NCBI GenBank assembly: GCA_964485315.1
Contig: CAZAIV010000113.1
Location: 1 to 32,511 of the forward strand
Length of the DNA stretch: 32,511 nucleotides
Reading direction: 5' to 3'
Source: an uncultured Gammaproteobacteria bacterium
GTDB lineage: Bacteria; Patescibacteriota; Microgenomatia; Levybacterales; UBA12049
The notes under the pieces were generated by a model. The model saw only the letters and a program-made list of their open reading frames with translations. It made no database searches and was not told the DNA's origin. Made by a program: the position numbers and the translations under genes. This document shows, piece after piece, positions 14,487 to 29,448 of this stretch; position 1 is the stretch's first letter; every line of letters starts with the position of its first letter.

Positions 14487-15206
14487 ATGAGATCAGAGGC
14501 AGAGCCAATTTACAGAGAAAGGCAACCCATTACTTGTGAGGGGGTAGCACGAAGAATTACAGACGTTGTAAGAGTTTATCAGGATGCTGGCTATGATCCT
14601 AGACTCATTGGCTTATTTGGCCGTCAAGCATCCCTTAATACTGACGTTCCTTCTGTCACTAGGAATAATGGAGCATATAGAGACATTGATCTGACAGTAC
14701 TATCAATACCTGCAGGGAGAGACATTGCCTCTTTAGATCATGAAGCGAGGCACATTGCATACCCAATTGGTCTTGATACGTTCAATTCTCTTTTTGTTAA
14801 TAATGCTAATGGAGCAACAAGTATAAGATATAAAGGTATCCTTCTTCCGATTGACCCAAAAGTTATTGAATCTAGAGAAGGACATTTAGCAGATGTAGCA
14901 ATTCCTACATTTAATCCCAGAACACTTTTTCATCTATCGGCATTATATATATCGATGAGATCAAAAGATAAAACATCGTTGCTGCAATTTGGAAGAAATA
15001 TGCGCAATGCAACCGATCTTTTGCCCGAAGAATTATTTGAACCTTTTCATCATATGATGGACATAAAAAGAAGAGAGTATCCTTTGGATATGTTCGTAGT
15101 TGCATTACACGACTTTTATTCTAATTACTGTCCCTCAACAATAAGGCAGAAATTACATCCCATCTTGGGAAAAGCTATCATGTCATTCTGGAACAGAGAT
15201 AGATGA
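14487..15206 (+). CDS. Hypothetical protein with a possible Pol-beta-type nucleotidyltransferase motif
   Basis: 239 aa from the first ATG; the 14454 start in the ORF track is a TTG inside the promoter. LIGLFGRQAS...YRDIDLTVL resembles the hG[GS]...DxD NTase signature. The 3' end overlaps the convergent Clp-like gene by 24 nt. Confidence 0.55.
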   Translation: MRSEAEPIYRERQPITCEGVARRITDVVRVYQDAGYDPRLIGLFGRQASLNTDVPSVTRNNGAYRDIDLTVLSIPAGRDIASLDHEARHIAYPIGLDTFNSLFVNNANGATSIRYKGILLPIDPKVIESREGHLADVAIPTFNPRTLFHLSALYISMRSKDKTSLLQFGRNMRNATDLLPEELFEPFHHMMDIKRREYPLDMFVVALHDFYSNYCPSTIRQKLHPILGKAIMSFWNRDR

Positions 15207-17600
15207 ATTTATGAAGGGTATTAACACAATATTGTTCCCGTCGTCAACCGTCATTACCAATTTGTCTCCGCGTTTGACTTGATCTTTTAATTTTCCCTGC
15301 GCGATCAGATCTTCCACGTGATCCTGAATATATCTTCTCATCGGTCTGGCGCCGAATTCCACATCCGCTCCCTCATTCACAATCTTTTGTATCAATTTCT
15401 CATCAAACACAAGAGTAATATCCTGCTCTTCAAGTTGTTTGGTAATACTTGTTAAGAGTAGCCCGACGATTTGCGTTAATTCCGGCACACCAAGCGGCTT
15501 AAACATGACGATTTCATCAAAACGATTCAATAATTCGGGTTTGAAGAGTTGTTTCTCCTGCAGATATTCCAACAATTTTCGCTGAAATGCCTTATCGATC
15601 TGTACTCCTTTAACCAGGTTCTCACGAACAAATTCCGCTCCTGCATTTGACGTTGCAATGATGATGCTGTTCACGAAAGAGACTGTTTTCCCTTTATTAT
15701 CCGTCAATCTCCCGTCCTCAAATACTTGAAGGAACAAATCCAGAATCCTCGGACTTGCTTTCTCAAATTCATCAAGCAAAACCAGAGAAAACGGATGATC
15801 ATGGATCTTATCGGTAAGTTCTCCTCTGTCATTTCCCTCGCCCGGCGCAGCCCCGAGCAGTCGTCTTTCTCCGTCACTATCAGAATACTCACTCATGTCA
15901 AGCCGAATCATGTTATTTTCGTCTCCGTAATATACTTGCGCCAATGCTTTCGCAGTTTCGGATTTTCCCACACCTGTCGGACCGAGGAACAAAAAAGAAA
16001 TCGGCCGTGTCGATGTCGTTAAACCGGAACGCAATCGCCTGATTGCTTCACTTATTGCCGAGATCGCATGCACCTGATCAATCACCCGAGCATGCAGTTT
16101 CTCTTCAAGATGGAGAAGTAAATCTTTTTCCTTCGCAGTCGGAGTACCGACATTCACATGAGTCTTCTTACTGATTTGCTCTTCGACATCCGATGCCAAG
16201 ACCATCTTTCCCTTCGCTAACGCAACGCTATTGGCAGTGTCATTCAAGAGTGTTACCGCGCTTCCCGGCAGCACGTCGTCCTGATCATATCTGTCTGCCA
16301 ATTCGACTGCCGAAATAACCGATAAATACGTAAGGGTAACTCCTTCATTCATCCGCTCAATCATATTTGATTTTTTCATAAGCATTTCCGTCGCGATATC
16401 CACACGCGGCTCATCAATAGTAATCACCGCAAAAACGTCTTTCAGAGGATTTTGCGCCAGATACGTTTTGAAATTCCCGGGAGTCATCGATGCAATAATC
16501 GCTAAATTACCGCTGTGCAGATACGGCATAAGCGCACCCGATACATCAAGTCCATACGAAGAAGAACCCATGAGATTTTGAAAATCCGGAATGTATAAAA
16601 TGACATTTTGTGAATGACTGACTTCCTCAATAATTGCCTGCAACCGTTCTTCAAGCTGGCTTCTCGTCTGCGCCCCCGCGATTAAAGGACCAACCATCAG
16701 CTCAAGCACTTTTTTGTAATTTAGCCGGGAAGAAAGAAACCCATAATAGCTGTCATCGGTTAATTTCGCGACTAAATTTTCTTTCCCGACACCCTGTTCG
16801 CCAACCAACATAACGTTATTCGTCTCACGTTTGCTTAAAGCCTCCAGCATTAACTTATACGATGTTTCTCTGCCTGCCAGAAATGGAATAATATTCGCCG
16901 CTCCATAAGTGAAATTCGCGGTGTACTTCTGTGTTTCCAGTGTCCATCCGCTCACCAATGATTCGCCAATTCCTTCACCCATAAAATGCACGCCTCCGGA
17001 CATCGGAAATTCCTCTTGTATATACTCTTTTCTTGCCCATTGCAGAATACGATAGACATCATCCGTTTTCAATTGGTGATTGAAAAATAGTTTCGTTTGC
17101 TCTTCAGTCATAAGAAGATAACTGATAAAAAAATCCATTGTCGTAATAAATTCACCTTTGACAGTTTTTACTATTTCCGTCGCTTCTGTCATGATCTGAT
17201 CTTTCTGTAAAGAGATACATGGTACATCTGCAGCAGTCATCCCCGATTTTCCGAGAAGAAAACGGATCTGTGGGTATGTGTAGAGTCGCTTCAGGCAATA
17301 TTGCATATCGACTGAAGATAGGTAGACACGTAAAAGCTCGGATGAACAGGATTCCAGATAATTCTTCTGTGTGTTTTTACTTAGAGACAATGTGGGATGG
17401 TAATGATACAGATGATACCGGAAAAAAAATTCAATGATCGTAAACCAGATGAGAAAGAAAAGAGGAAACTTGAATGACGCATGATGAACTACTTGACTGA
17501 ACAACAAAAAGACAATCAGGAAAATTATCAGCAATCGTATCACGCGAATCAATGCTGAAGTGTAAAAAAGATATAAACGTGTATATTGTTCACCTGTCAT
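15183..17600 (-). CDS. Membrane-anchored Hsp100/Clp-family ATPase with a degenerate NBD1 and an intact NBD2
   Basis: 805-aa ORF.
- Two N-terminal TM helices (aa ~15-60), followed by Clp_N-like repeats.
- NBD1 Walker A reads GEQGVGKE (nt 16779-16802; canonical GxPGVGKT).
- NBD1 Walker B reads ILYIPD (nt 16584-16601; canonical ILFIDE).
- The RRFQ arginine motif reads KDVFAV.
- NBD2 is canonical: GPTGVGKSE, LVLLDEFEKA, ATSN, ELLNRFDEIV, GARPMRR.
- There is no M-domain and no IG[FL] loop. Confidence 0.85.
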   Translation of the reverse strand: MTGEQYTRLYLFYTSALIRVIRLLIIFLIVFLLFSQVVHHASFKFPLFFLIWFTIIEFFFRYHLYHYHPTLSLSKNTQKNYLESCSSELLRVYLSSVDMQYCLKRLYTYPQIRFLLGKSGMTAADVPCISLQKDQIMTEATEIVKTVKGEFITTMDFFISYLLMTEEQTKLFFNHQLKTDDVYRILQWARKEYIQEEFPMSGGVHFMGEGIGESLVSGWTLETQKYTANFTYGAANIIPFLAGRETSYKLMLEALSKRETNNVMLVGEQGVGKENLVAKLTDDSYYGFLSSRLNYKKVLELMVGPLIAGAQTRSQLEERLQAIIEEVSHSQNVILYIPDFQNLMGSSSYGLDVSGALMPYLHSGNLAIIASMTPGNFKTYLAQNPLKDVFAVITIDEPRVDIATEMLMKKSNMIERMNEGVTLTYLSVISAVELADRYDQDDVLPGSAVTLLNDTANSVALAKGKMVLASDVEEQISKKTHVNVGTPTAKEKDLLLHLEEKLHARVIDQVHAISAISEAIRRLRSGLTTSTRPISFLFLGPTGVGKSETAKALAQVYYGDENNMIRLDMSEYSDSDGERRLLGAAPGEGNDRGELTDKIHDHPFSLVLLDEFEKASPRILDLFLQVFEDGRLTDNKGKTVSFVNSIIIATSNAGAEFVRENLVKGVQIDKAFQRKLLEYLQEKQLFKPELLNRFDEIVMFKPLGVPELTQIVGLLLTSITKQLEEQDITLVFDEKLIQKIVNEGADVEFGARPMRRYIQDHVEDLIAQGKLKDQVKRGDKLVMTVDDGNNIVLIPFINSSISVPE

Positions 17601-17929
17601 ACAGTAAAGAAAAGTAAGAAAAACGAAAAGAACGGCAAAAGTATAAAACCGAAGAGAAATAAGAACTCAAAGACAAGTAAGAGAATAAAAAGAAGCAGTG
17701 AAAAAAGAATCAGAACCGATTTTATGAACATCCCCATACCGATTGAAAATCCCACCAACCCCTGTCTGTATTCGTTTTTGATCGGCTGAAAAAATGTTTT
17801 GAGGAGCGCTGAAAATGAAAAAAAACGGAAAAAGGAGCTGTTCAAAGAACCGAAATAACTGACGAATGCAAGAGGCGCATCGATATACCAGAATTTCGCG
17901 ATAACCAATGGCAGGAGTGGATATTGCAT
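17597..17929 (-). CDS. Small polytopic membrane protein (110 aa), translationally coupled to the membrane-anchored Clp-like gene
   Basis: It is very hydrophobic and Phe/Leu-rich. Its TGA overlaps the downstream ATG in an ATGA (17597-17600). Confidence 0.55.
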   Translation of the reverse strand: MQYPLLPLVIAKFWYIDAPLAFVSYFGSLNSSFFRFFSFSALLKTFFQPIKNEYRQGLVGFSIGMGMFIKSVLILFSLLLFILLLVFEFLFLFGFILLPFFSFFLLFFTV

Positions 17930-17971
17930 ACTTACTCTAGTCTAGGCAATATAGCCTGAAAATGCAATCAA

Positions 17972-28933: not shown

Positions 28934-29026
28934 CAAGACCTACCCTACCACATCATTGGCTAGGGCAAAATACCCCTCATGATATTAAAACTAGCAGACT
29001 TGGAGAGAAAAAACAATATTCTCTCG

Positions 29027-29055
29027 TTGCACTCCGGCACAATTTTCGATACTAT
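29027..29055 (+). promoter_or_regulatory. Sigma70-like promoter candidate for the divergent paralog (near-leaderless)
   Basis: TTGCAC (29027-29032), a 17-nt spacer, then TACTAT (29050-29055). The ATG at 29062 is only 6 nt downstream. A GAGAGAA/TTCTCTC hairpin lies just upstream (about 29003-29025). Confidence 0.35.
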
Positions 29056-29061
29056 GACAAT

Positions 29062-29448
29062 ATGCCGATTACGCTTCCCTCAGAAAAACCGAAAAGAAAA
29101 ATTTCCCTCATTTCCATTGGGCTTGGAGTCATACTTCTGGTACTGCTTGGCCTGACTTCATATCAATTCCTTTCCGTATCGTTTATCAACCTGCATTTAC
29201 CCGTAGGCGGACCGCCGGCAAATTATGTAAAAGGCGGTGTGATTGTGGTCGTGAAAGCGAATAGCTATGAGGAAGCTTCTGCTGTCATTGAGAAATATAC
29301 AAAGAGTTATTACGAATTGGTAACTAATAACGGGGACAATTATAAAATCGGTGTGGATGTCCCGGTTGGACAGGAGCAAACGTGGATTGAAAAATTCTTA
29401 AAAGATCCTGCAGTCCTTGATGCGAGATATCAACTCCCGACCGATTAA
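29062..29448 (+). CDS. N-terminally TM-anchored small alpha/beta protein (128 aa), paralog of 28489-28875
   Basis: It has the same length and layout as its paralog. YVKGGVIVVVKANSYEEASAVIEKY...VDVPVGQEQTWIEKFLKDPAVLDARYQL aligns with YARGQIIVTFNVTYPNEDINVL...VDVPPGDEQKWIDKFQGVSGVVSAQYVYL. Confidence 0.6.
   Translation: MPITLPSEKPKRKISLISIGLGVILLVLLGLTSYQFLSVSFINLHLPVGGPPANYVKGGVIVVVKANSYEEASAVIEKYTKSYYELVTNNGDNYKIGVDVPVGQEQTWIEKFLKDPAVLDARYQLPTD

Follow-up and report, generated by a model that had tools for sequence, protein, structure and literature searches.

To our knowledge, every type IV secretion system (T4SS) described so far depends on VirB4. VirB6 proteins with very long extensions are known, namely TraG of the F plasmid and the RvhB6 paralogs of Rickettsiales. 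Among the Hsp100 ATPases, ClpV (TssH) is dedicated to the type VI secretion machine, and ClpB, encoded in heat-shock operons governed by HrcA and the controlling inverted repeat of chaperone expression (CIRCE), forms a bichaperone with DnaK, to which it is coupled through its M-domain. Surface enzymes, finally, may carry C-terminal sorting tags, as in the LPXTG/sortase, type IX secretion system C-terminal domain (T9SS CTD) and PEP-CTERM/exosortase systems. Here, we analyze a gene cluster of Levybacteria that can be compared with each of these. It lies on contig CAZAIV010000113.1, an entire contig of 32,511 nt from an NCBI assembly, which we call the window. The core of the cluster is a VirB2-like pilin, a divergent, C-terminally extended VirB6/TrbL protein (hereafter, the giant) and a dedicated Hsp100, and its frequent accessories are an extracytoplasmic protease with a Cys tail and a pair formed by a small membrane protein, p110, and a membrane-tethered Hsp100 with aromatic-free pore loops. 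Tentatively, and at a little under an even chance, we read it as an Hsp100-coupled VirB2/VirB6 module, in which platform and pilin would be coupled to the specialized Hsp100 through the cytoplasmic repeats of the platform.

VirB6 has been described as a protein of seven long helices, five of them mostly hydrophobic, that provides the pentameric base for VirB2 assembly (PMC9259494). A survey of T4SSs in Patescibacteria, the sole publication on these components that our literature search returned, detected VirB4 in 80% of assemblies and pilins away from virB4 in approximately 40% of them, and found VirB6 to be scarce in Microgenomatia, which was credited to extreme sequence divergence; Clp, DnaK and chaperones do not appear in it (Quinonero-Coronel et al. 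2025, PMC12102498).

A gene triad conserved across Levybacteria

All eight minus-strand open reading frames (ORFs) that the original prediction had placed at 15183-28875 were found in the window, as was a divergent ORF at 29062-29448. Recomputed from the coordinates, the spacers are identical to those claimed (2, 7, 32, 25, 23 and 42 nt, plus one 4-nt overlap), and Pfam agrees on the two Hsp100-type ATPases and the M4 protease. For comparison, a one-genome-per-species collection was scanned, yielding 154 matching stretches, of which the best 80 loci were kept; the membrane domain of the giant is 46-66% identical across them, and all belong to one lineage (Levybacteria/Patescibacteria). Window proteins were mapped by tblastn on 83 loci (L001-L083), most of which were probed with the window's own proteins alone, and the 3,660 ORFs of the loci served for motif, tail and repeat searches.

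Comparison of gene order among relatives had been proposed as a check, and the order dnaK-(dnaJ)-pilin-giant-Hsp100 proved nearly invariant in the 80 loci. The pilin gene lies directly upstream of the giant gene in 76 of 78 loci (median gap 3 nt), an Hsp100 of the 989-aa type downstream of the giant in 66 of 68 (median gap 50 nt), and dnaK upstream in 63 of 68; the gaps are operon-like. A tail-bearing protease gene follows the Hsp100 gene in 43 of 55 loci, and p110 with the membrane Hsp100 lies downstream in 38 of 55. The cluster is thus a Levybacteria-wide conserved operon, located mostly beside or inside the hrcA-grpE-dnaK-dnaJ group. In 24 loci the order is dnaK-pilin-giant-Hsp100-protease-dnaJ-p110-Hsp100, with dnaJ downstream of the Hsp100 gene; the cluster genes therefore sit inside the heat-shock gene cluster, and the dnaK-dnaJ neighborhood is not incidental. 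The triad of pilin, giant and Hsp100 stays together while dnaJ changes sides and the protease class changes. Several loci carry inserts between dnaJ or dnaK and the pilin gene, encoding a phosphoesterase, tetratricopeptide repeat proteins, a solute-binding protein and proteins of unknown function; VirB4 was sought among these inserts and none was found.

That spacing and order might be nothing but inherited synteny in compact genomes, devoid of functional meaning, is in our judgment highly improbable. The relatives do all come from one lineage and genomes of the candidate phyla radiation (CPR) are compact, but flanks and inserts vary (the position of dnaJ, inserts of 0.7-3 kb, the class of protease), whereas pilin-giant-Hsp100 and p110-Hsp100 remain side by side on the same strand, a few nucleotides apart, and the giant and the Hsp100 share a domain, as described below.

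The pilin gene (27929-28486, minus strand) encodes a 185-aa protein composed of a signal peptide, a six-Cys module (aa 29-71, nt 28274-28402) and a two-helix pilin domain (aa 85-185, nt 27932-28234). The window protein scores below threshold against the T4SS_pilin family PF18895 (12.6 bits, cut-off 26.6; E = 0.15) and weakly matches the NCBIfam family Mbov_0395, a conjugative pilin-like family of mycoplasmas (E = 0.004). Close homologs of its last 100 residues number in the hundreds, and 34 of the 41 that were sampled (56-79% identity) match PF18895 at E < 1e-3, the best at 6.7e-8. In the alignment, two hydrophobic helices surround a short charged loop, with a conserved Cys pair ahead; in the window, helix 1 (FYGIGLG...YGGY) leads through the loop TSQGDPLKLQTGKS to helix 2 (YLYYAIAGLLLAIFGYVFIQ), which is a VirB2-like layout. 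The VirB2-like assignment made in the original prediction is thus borne out by the homologs, and, judged by its sequence, the small protein is rightly regarded as a member of the VirB2-like pilin family, with polymerization or handling by a T4SS being putative. Three loci (L076:4122-5308, and also L070 and L077) carry a second pilin-like gene (151 aa) together with a gene for a Cys-rich secreted protein (252 aa), on the opposite strand and upstream of hrcA.

The giant gene (23194-27921, minus strand; 1,575 aa) encodes a signal/transmembrane (TM) segment, a six-Cys module forming a Cys-rich ectodomain (aa 32-70, nt 27712-27828), a divergent TrbL/VirB6-like polytopic membrane domain (aa 84-450, 26572-27672, minus strand), a Pro-rich linker and two tandem modules predicted to be cytoplasmic (aa ~505-915, nt 25177-26409, and aa ~960-1555, nt 23257-25044). 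Each module consists of an MRDIA motif, xGNxLAxxIL repeats and a conserved C-terminal domain, and the two are 31% identical to each other (E = 3e-49). The relatives of the giant are mostly 700-820 aa long and have one module, the longest reaching 2,790 aa. The six-Cys pattern C-x7/8-C-x7-C-x13/14-C-x5/9-CC-V is common to the window's pilin and giant and absent from most relatives; it looks like a lineage-specific extracellular module that was added to both. In seven loci (L010:12267-13658 and six others), a 463-aa ORF with no Pfam match lies between the giant and Hsp100 genes.

The VirB6-like nature of the membrane domain emerges from several weak, concordant lines rather than one strong line. 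By itself, the window domain stays below the threshold of the TrbL family PF04610 (10.7 bits, E = 0.45), and a Pfam search with ten distant representatives of the giant (E ~1e-70 to 1e-81) did not match TrbL; the orthologs P0070, P0087 and P0036 score 26.0, 25.8 and 24.1 bits, around the cut-off of 25.9. An initial AlphaFold2 (AF2) model of aa 1-470 built from 24 sequences was unusable (predicted local distance difference test, pLDDT, 55), whereas a second model, of aa 84-450 and from 121 sequences, reached a pLDDT of 84.4 and a predicted TM-score (pTM) of 0.82. When this model was compared with the PDB by Foldseek, the top five matches were chains of the R388 TrwJ/VirB5-TrwI/VirB6 stalk, each 260-272 residues long (probability 0.69-0.99, four of them at 0.96-0.99; TM-score 0.35-0.52; E = 0.09-0.7, which is weak), followed by DotA in sixth place. 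The Foldseek output does not name the protein of each chain, and we take the matched chains to be VirB6, most likely, because 260-272 residues exceed the length of VirB5. The model is a bundle of long, mostly hydrophobic helices, the fold expected of VirB6, and as a model it fits the published description of that protein (PMC9259494).

A tblastn search of 7.3 Gb of plasmid sequence gave three weak matches, two of which fall within a single Agrobacterium gene. This gene encodes a bona fide TrbL (PF04610, E = 1e-36) and lies between virB3 and the gene of a second, unnamed T4SS protein that precedes virB9; hhalign aligned the conserved helix pair RKIILWFF...SPxFP of the giant to this TrbL with 40% identity over 55 columns (E = 2.6e-4, probability 42%). 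A profile search of PDB sequences with the giant alignment matched its repeats to a designed coiled coil and recovered no VirB6. Among viral structures, the best Foldseek match was the unannotated Gp153 of Bacillus phage G (E = 2.3e-5, TM-score 0.51-0.57), which is not informative for function; a phage protein annotated as TrbL/VirB6 stands at rank 9 in the same list. With orthologs near the PF04610 cut-off and the AF2 model matching the R388 VirB5/VirB6 stalk, the VirB6-like assignment withstood these searches, and we consider the reading of the pair as VirB2-like and VirB6-like to be right.

Hsp100 partners and the question of the motor

The third member of the triad (20192-23161, minus strand) is an Hsp100 of 989 aa with a ClpA-like layout, in which Pfam recognizes Clp_N, two AAA modules (D1 and D2) and D2-small. 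It aligns equally well to ClpC and ClpB, with the alignment skipping their M-domain, and opposite the YVGF ClpP loop of ClpC it reads SKPTKLKEE. Its D1 pore loop is AGASHRGEFE, with His where ClpB has Tyr, as in 58 of 65 orthologs; the D2 pore loop is canonical and the C-terminal tail is P/Q-rich. The spacing between the D1 lid and D2 is 34 aa in 47 of the 65 orthologs. The protein scores below the NCBIfam cut-offs for ClpB, ClpA and ClpV. A ClpB equivalog was rejected (TIGR03346, 885.9 versus a cut-off of 1232.1; M-domain absent), as were ClpV/TssH (TIGR03345, 681.3 versus 884.95; no components of a type VI secretion system, T6SS, in the window) and a ClpP-dependent unfoldase of the ClpA/ClpC type (the [ILV]G[FL] docking loop is absent in 50 of 50 scorable orthologs). 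By these motifs, the 989-type Hsp100 appears able neither to couple to DnaK, having no M-domain, nor to dock ClpP, having no loop. The original prediction had offered as its own alternative that this ATPase is simply the housekeeping disaggregase; this is weakened because almost every ortholog lacks the M-domain required for coupling to DnaK.

In four species the Hsp100 bears the giant's own repeat. The Hsp100s at L070:12402-15905, L076:13471-17754, L077:13716-18011 and L082:14202-18191 are 1,167-1,431 aa long, with a C-terminal extension of 350-600 aa that contains 2-9 copies of the ANP...GNxLAxxIL repeat. A blastp search of the 3,660 ORFs with this extension, using low-complexity and composition filters, retrieved nothing other than giants (E down to 5e-25) and the four Hsp100s themselves. 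The sharing of repeats therefore ties the ATPase to the repeat region of the giant and supports a cytoplasmic location of that region, which we infer both from the positive-inside rule and from the occurrence of the repeats on a cytoplasmic ATPase.

The second Hsp100-like ATPase, of 805 aa (15183-17600, minus strand), is of another kind. Pfam recognizes AAA_2 and ClpB_D2-small and, weakly, D1. The protein has N-terminal TM segments, and the Walker A and B motifs of D2 are intact, whereas those of D1 are degenerate (GEQGVGKE; YIPDFQ) and both pore loops lack an aromatic residue (AGAQTRSQLE; GAAPGEGNDRGE). These features are kept in 37 orthologs, the D1 Walker B being degenerate in all 38 sequences. 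A functional Hsp100 threading motor was rejected on account of the degenerate D1 and the aromatic-free pore loops; judged by its sequence, this ATPase probably does not thread substrates in the conventional manner. Its gene is always directly preceded by that of p110, a small polytopic membrane protein of 110 aa (17597-17929, minus strand), with a median gap of 1 nt and at most 45 nt in 40 of 40 loci. Motif, cut-off and ortholog comparisons thus agree with the earlier view of both Hsp100s as atypical. PADLOC defense models matched the Clp D2 domain alone (ClpB-like DolB, PDC-M37B) and none of the other seven proteins, and an anti-phage defense system was rejected, as beyond this generic domain no system-specific protein was matched.

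As the original prediction had stated, no VirB4, VirB11 or VirD4 is encoded in the window, and none was found in the Pfam calls of L001-L003 or among approximately 20 more flanking ORFs (L037, L004, L016, L053, L015, L039, L002 and L069). The locus thus lacks the VirB4 of a canonical T4SS. The further claim that Clp proteins are the only motors present holds for the locus; it does not extend to the genome, because a separate locus of pilin, pilin, TrsD and VirB4 has been published for some Levybacteria. The giant could then be the "missing" VirB6, and the pilin an extra one, of the known Patescibacteria T4SS powered by VirB4/TrsD encoded elsewhere, with the Hsp100s, DnaK/DnaJ and protease as mere co-regulated neighbors. 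Of the rival explanations this is the main one; we consider it somewhat unlikely, and it is compatible with our preferred reading, the two not being mutually exclusive. The scarcity of VirB6 in Microgenomatia, attributed to divergence, and the frequent separation of pilins from virB4 both fit it, as do the two Levybacteria in which Table S3 of the survey lists pilin, pilin, TrsD and VirB4 with a distant type IV coupling protein (T4CP) and no VirB6 (PMC12102498). Of the three cluster-carrying assemblies that appear in the survey table, one (L027) is VirB4-positive; the other two are negative, which speaks against this explanation with the caveat of incomplete metagenome-assembled genomes (MAGs). 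Against it stand also the presence of VirB4 in 20 of 44 Levybacteria assemblies, in the part of Table S1 covered here, versus 80% of all Patescibacteria (PMC12102498), the giant's repeats on the Hsp100 of four species, and the adjacency of giant and Hsp100, which is kept in 66 of 68 loci even though dnaJ changes sides in 24.

Accessories, heat-shock setting and proposed working

The gene after the Hsp100 gene always encodes an N-terminally anchored protease, whose class varies. In the window it is an M4 (thermolysin-type) protease of 615 aa (17972-19819, minus strand) with an N-terminal TM anchor, an FTP propeptide and a four-Cys C-terminal tail (PF02868, 118 bits; PF01447, 38.5 bits; FTP, 31.8 bits; HELTH and NESMSD present). 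In relatives, M4 members of this slot keep HExxH and NExxSD, others are S8 subtilisins (Pfam E = 1e-47 to 1e-64), and a third type, with HExxGH, faintly matches M64. Fixed membership of the M4 protease, as implied by the original prediction, was accordingly rejected: it is one of three interchangeable classes. What is constant is the end of the protein. A tail of approximately 25 residues, with the consensus YxC..DPxC......IQxCxLxCTP or a two-Cys variant of it, ends nearly all slot proteases; in the window it spans aa 593-615 (GCKMVSHCQAGTGSIQLCTFTCE; 17975-18043, minus strand). A hidden Markov model of the tail found slot proteases only among the 3,660 ORFs, one or two per locus, and of the 91 candidates that a 46-aa version retrieved from a collection of 5.8 billion proteins, none reached E <= 1. 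The two inner Cys residues occur either jointly or not at all, which fits the expectation for a disulfide-stapled hairpin, and this is what the tail looks like from its sequence. The link between giant and protease survives in a different genomic context: at L037:9902-16657, a giant homolog lies in another neighborhood (alaS...lepA), with no pilin and no Hsp100, and is followed by two S8 proteases with the two-Cys tail, and L057 gives the same tblastn pattern. In 18 loci (L001:15007-15528 and 17 others), a TM-anchored, Cys-containing protein of ~175-183 aa with no Pfam match is encoded between the Hsp100 and protease genes; it has no counterpart in the window.

The regulatory setting is that of the chaperones. 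Approximately 45 loci each have one CIRCE-like inverted repeat, TTAGCA[CG]TC-N9-..TGCTAA (<=3 mismatches), located ~1.3-1.45 kb upstream of dnaK. In L001 and L002, the only loci with hrcA mapped, it stands directly before hrcA. Another such site was found farther upstream in a few loci. The window contains no CIRCE within 3 mismatches, which is uninformative because the contig ends 145 nt upstream of dnaK. These sites, together with the 24 loci in which the genes lie between dnaK and dnaJ and an interchangeable protease class that suggests a generic degradative role, would suit a heat-shock and envelope-proteostasis regulon that forms no machine, in which HrcA would control DnaK/DnaJ, a stand-alone disaggregase, a membrane-tethered AAA+ protein and an extracytoplasmic protease for quality control, the VirB2- and VirB6-like proteins being independent stress-responsive membrane proteins. 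We give this explanation little credence. Neither Hsp100 resembles a general disaggregase, one lacking the M-domain and the other the pore-loop tyrosines; specific partnerships are suggested by the fusion of giant-type repeats to the Hsp100 and by the unvarying tail of the protease; and in the window a convergent gene stands between dnaJ and the cluster, which is preceded by a promoter-like site of its own. Both this regulon and inherited synteny are made less likely by the shared domain, by the constancy of the tail and by a triad that is stable amid changing surroundings.

Under the preferred reading of an Hsp100-coupled VirB2/VirB6 module, the VirB6-like protein would form a membrane platform that handles pilin-like subunits, as in R388, and its long cytoplasmic repeat modules would recruit the Hsp100. 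By analogy, the Hsp100 might supply ATP-driven pulling or remodeling, as VirB4 does in canonical type IV systems, or else recycle the assembly, as ClpV does for the T6SS. The Cys tail would keep the protease at the outer face, the membrane-bound AAA+ pair of p110 and the 805-aa Hsp100 would be accessory, and the cluster would be expressed along with the heat-shock/chaperone program. A more far-reaching version, which we regard as unlikely, makes the cluster a VirB4-independent surface filament or translocon, in which the Hsp100 is a motor recruited by the platform repeats, the Cys-tail proteases are the working end for feeding or attack, and the p110/Hsp100 pair is a membrane regulator.

Several points weigh against the coupled module. 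The window pilin and giant are below Pfam thresholds and the fold-search E-values are weak (at least 0.09); the window's own Hsp100 lacks giant-type repeats, and with the Tyr of its D1 pore loop replaced by His, threading is putative, as are physical interaction and co-transcription of the cluster products. The slot proteases carry Sec-type N-terminal anchors and need no special exporter. Part of the signal comes from inherited synteny, all relatives being of a single lineage (46-66% identity). Finally, the pilin-pilin-TrsD-VirB4 locus in Table S3 of the survey (PMC12102498) has no VirB6, and the giant could be the VirB6 of that system.

The eight-gene unit of the original prediction is not a fixed set. 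p128a, the first gene (28489-28875, minus strand), encodes a TM-anchored, lineage-specific protein of 128 aa, and p128b (29062-29448, plus strand), also TM-anchored, lineage-specific and of 128 aa, is divergent from the cluster and convergent with dnaJ, which it separates from the cluster in the window. In tblastn searches of the 83 loci, both were found solely in the two nearest relatives (L004 and L050), and p107 (19843-20166, minus strand) in none. The two p128 proteins had been called paralogs: length and architecture are equal, but detectable similarity is confined to 26 residues (54% identity, pairwise E = 6e-7). p128a weakly matches the protease prodomain Fervidolysin_NPro (E = 0.011) and, at equivalent positions, resembles the N-termini of S8 slot proteases only weakly (E = 0.05-0.2); whether of S8 or another type, a protease prodomain that has become detached and is anchored in the membrane, or else an inhibitor, is a tentative reading of it. 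The p107 ORF, with no Pfam or NCBIfam match, stands outside the conserved set and may be a lineage-specific gene, a gene of very recent origin or no gene at all.

Upstream of the first gene, the promoter-like site of the original prediction does exist, as a Sigma-70-like match (28906-28933, minus strand; 10/12 matches). Such sites are not enriched (48 in the region, 35.7 +/- 7.1 in shuffled sequence), and the cluster itself contains a second one with 10/12 matches (27955-27928), so that the upstream match is weak evidence; at its position, relatives usually carry dnaJ or dnaK. The cluster had also been described as free of internal stem-loops, and there is indeed no terminator-like hairpin between its genes on the minus strand, although a weak one lies within the 805-aa gene. 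A further weak terminator-like hairpin (15158-15170, minus strand; 5-bp stem) stands 13 nt past the stop codon of the last gene.

The flanks, with a Lon-like AAA protein, PNPase, a 487-aa IF-2 and NusA downstream and DnaJ and DnaK upstream, have a gene content typical for a reduced CPR/Patescibacteria genome. The Lon-like gene (104-1315) encodes a 403-aa AAA+ protein in which the Lon lid domain is present and the Lon protease domain absent; it adjoins the PNPase gene, a pair also found in L002. A 325-aa protein encoded at 7464-8441 joins a PhoU domain to an N-terminal domain of the AbrB/MazE type. Between dnaK and dnaJ lies a good terminator-like hairpin (30365-30385, minus strand; 8-bp stem and T-run), flanked by AT-rich palindromes (30383-30464). 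L005, L010, L011 and many other related MAGs are titled "uncultured Gammaproteobacteria", while gene content and protein identities assign them to Levybacteria.

Comparison with described systems

If the pilin/VirB6 pair is stably Hsp100-coupled across this CPR lineage, then either a different type of motor can drive or service the membrane parts of a type IV system, or an unrecognized chaperone arm belongs to the CPR T4SS. The giant is a concrete candidate for the VirB6 that could not be found in Microgenomatia by the published survey (PMC12102498), and the locus adds two apparently undescribed Hsp100 subfamilies and a new protease tail that is kept across swaps of the catalytic domain. For CPR organisms, which have not yet been grown alone, it offers a testable surface apparatus that may underlie feeding on, or attaching to, hosts. 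Our search of the literature and of curated profile libraries returned no description of this combination, of its placement in the dnaK cluster, of the two Hsp100 subfamilies or of the protease tail.

The 989-type Hsp100 resembles ClpV in being a double-ring Hsp100 without ClpP docking that is encoded inside an envelope-machine operon, and by analogy it would bind a specific partner rather than general aggregates. Unlike for ClpV, there are no T6SS genes and no M-domain here, and the presumed partner is a VirB6-like membrane protein. With the ClpB-DnaK bichaperone the locus shares the vicinity of hrcA-grpE-dnaK-dnaJ, a CIRCE-like site upstream in relatives, and the architecture of Clp_N followed by two AAA+ modules; it differs in the lack of the M-domain and in the two membrane-protein genes that always lie between dnaK/dnaJ and the Hsp100 gene. 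Like the extended VirB6 proteins, the giant has a VirB6-type domain followed by a very long region that varies in length through repeats and duplication, although its extension is predicted to be cytoplasmic and consists of the ~45-aa ANP...GNxLAxxIL repeat and a terminal domain without a Pfam match. The protease tail recalls C-terminal sorting tags in that a short C-terminal element remains constant while the enzyme domain ahead of it is swapped, but it has no hydrophobic helix and no NCBIfam match, and is carried by one or two proteases per locus in the 83 loci rather than by many cargoes.

The last comparison is with the type IV systems themselves. As in the T4SSs of Patescibacteria, which derive from MPF-FATA and comprise VirB4, TrsD, PrgI/VirB3, VirB6 and VirB2-like pilins (PMC12102498), a PF18895-type pilin is found beside a TrbL/VirB6-like protein in a monoderm CPR host, with no relaxase; in contrast to them, this locus has no VirB4, TrsD or VirB3, its neighbors are Hsp100s, DnaK/DnaJ and a protease, and its VirB6 is far more divergent and carries long, presumably cytoplasmic repeat modules. 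The VirB6-VirB2 platform of R388/pKM101 (Mace et al. 2022, PMC9259494) is likewise built on long, mostly hydrophobic helices and its stalk chains are the best PDB matches of the giant, which is encoded beside a two-helix pilin. Compared with that platform, sequence identity is ~14% and the TM-score 0.35-0.52, the locus has no VirB5, VirB3, VirB4 or VirB8, and the giant possesses an extra N-terminal ectodomain and an extension, putatively cytoplasmic, whose length ranges from 300 to over 1,000 aa. The parts of this locus, VirB2, VirB6, Hsp100 and M4/S8 proteases, are of known kinds, and it is their combination that is undescribed in the literature searched.

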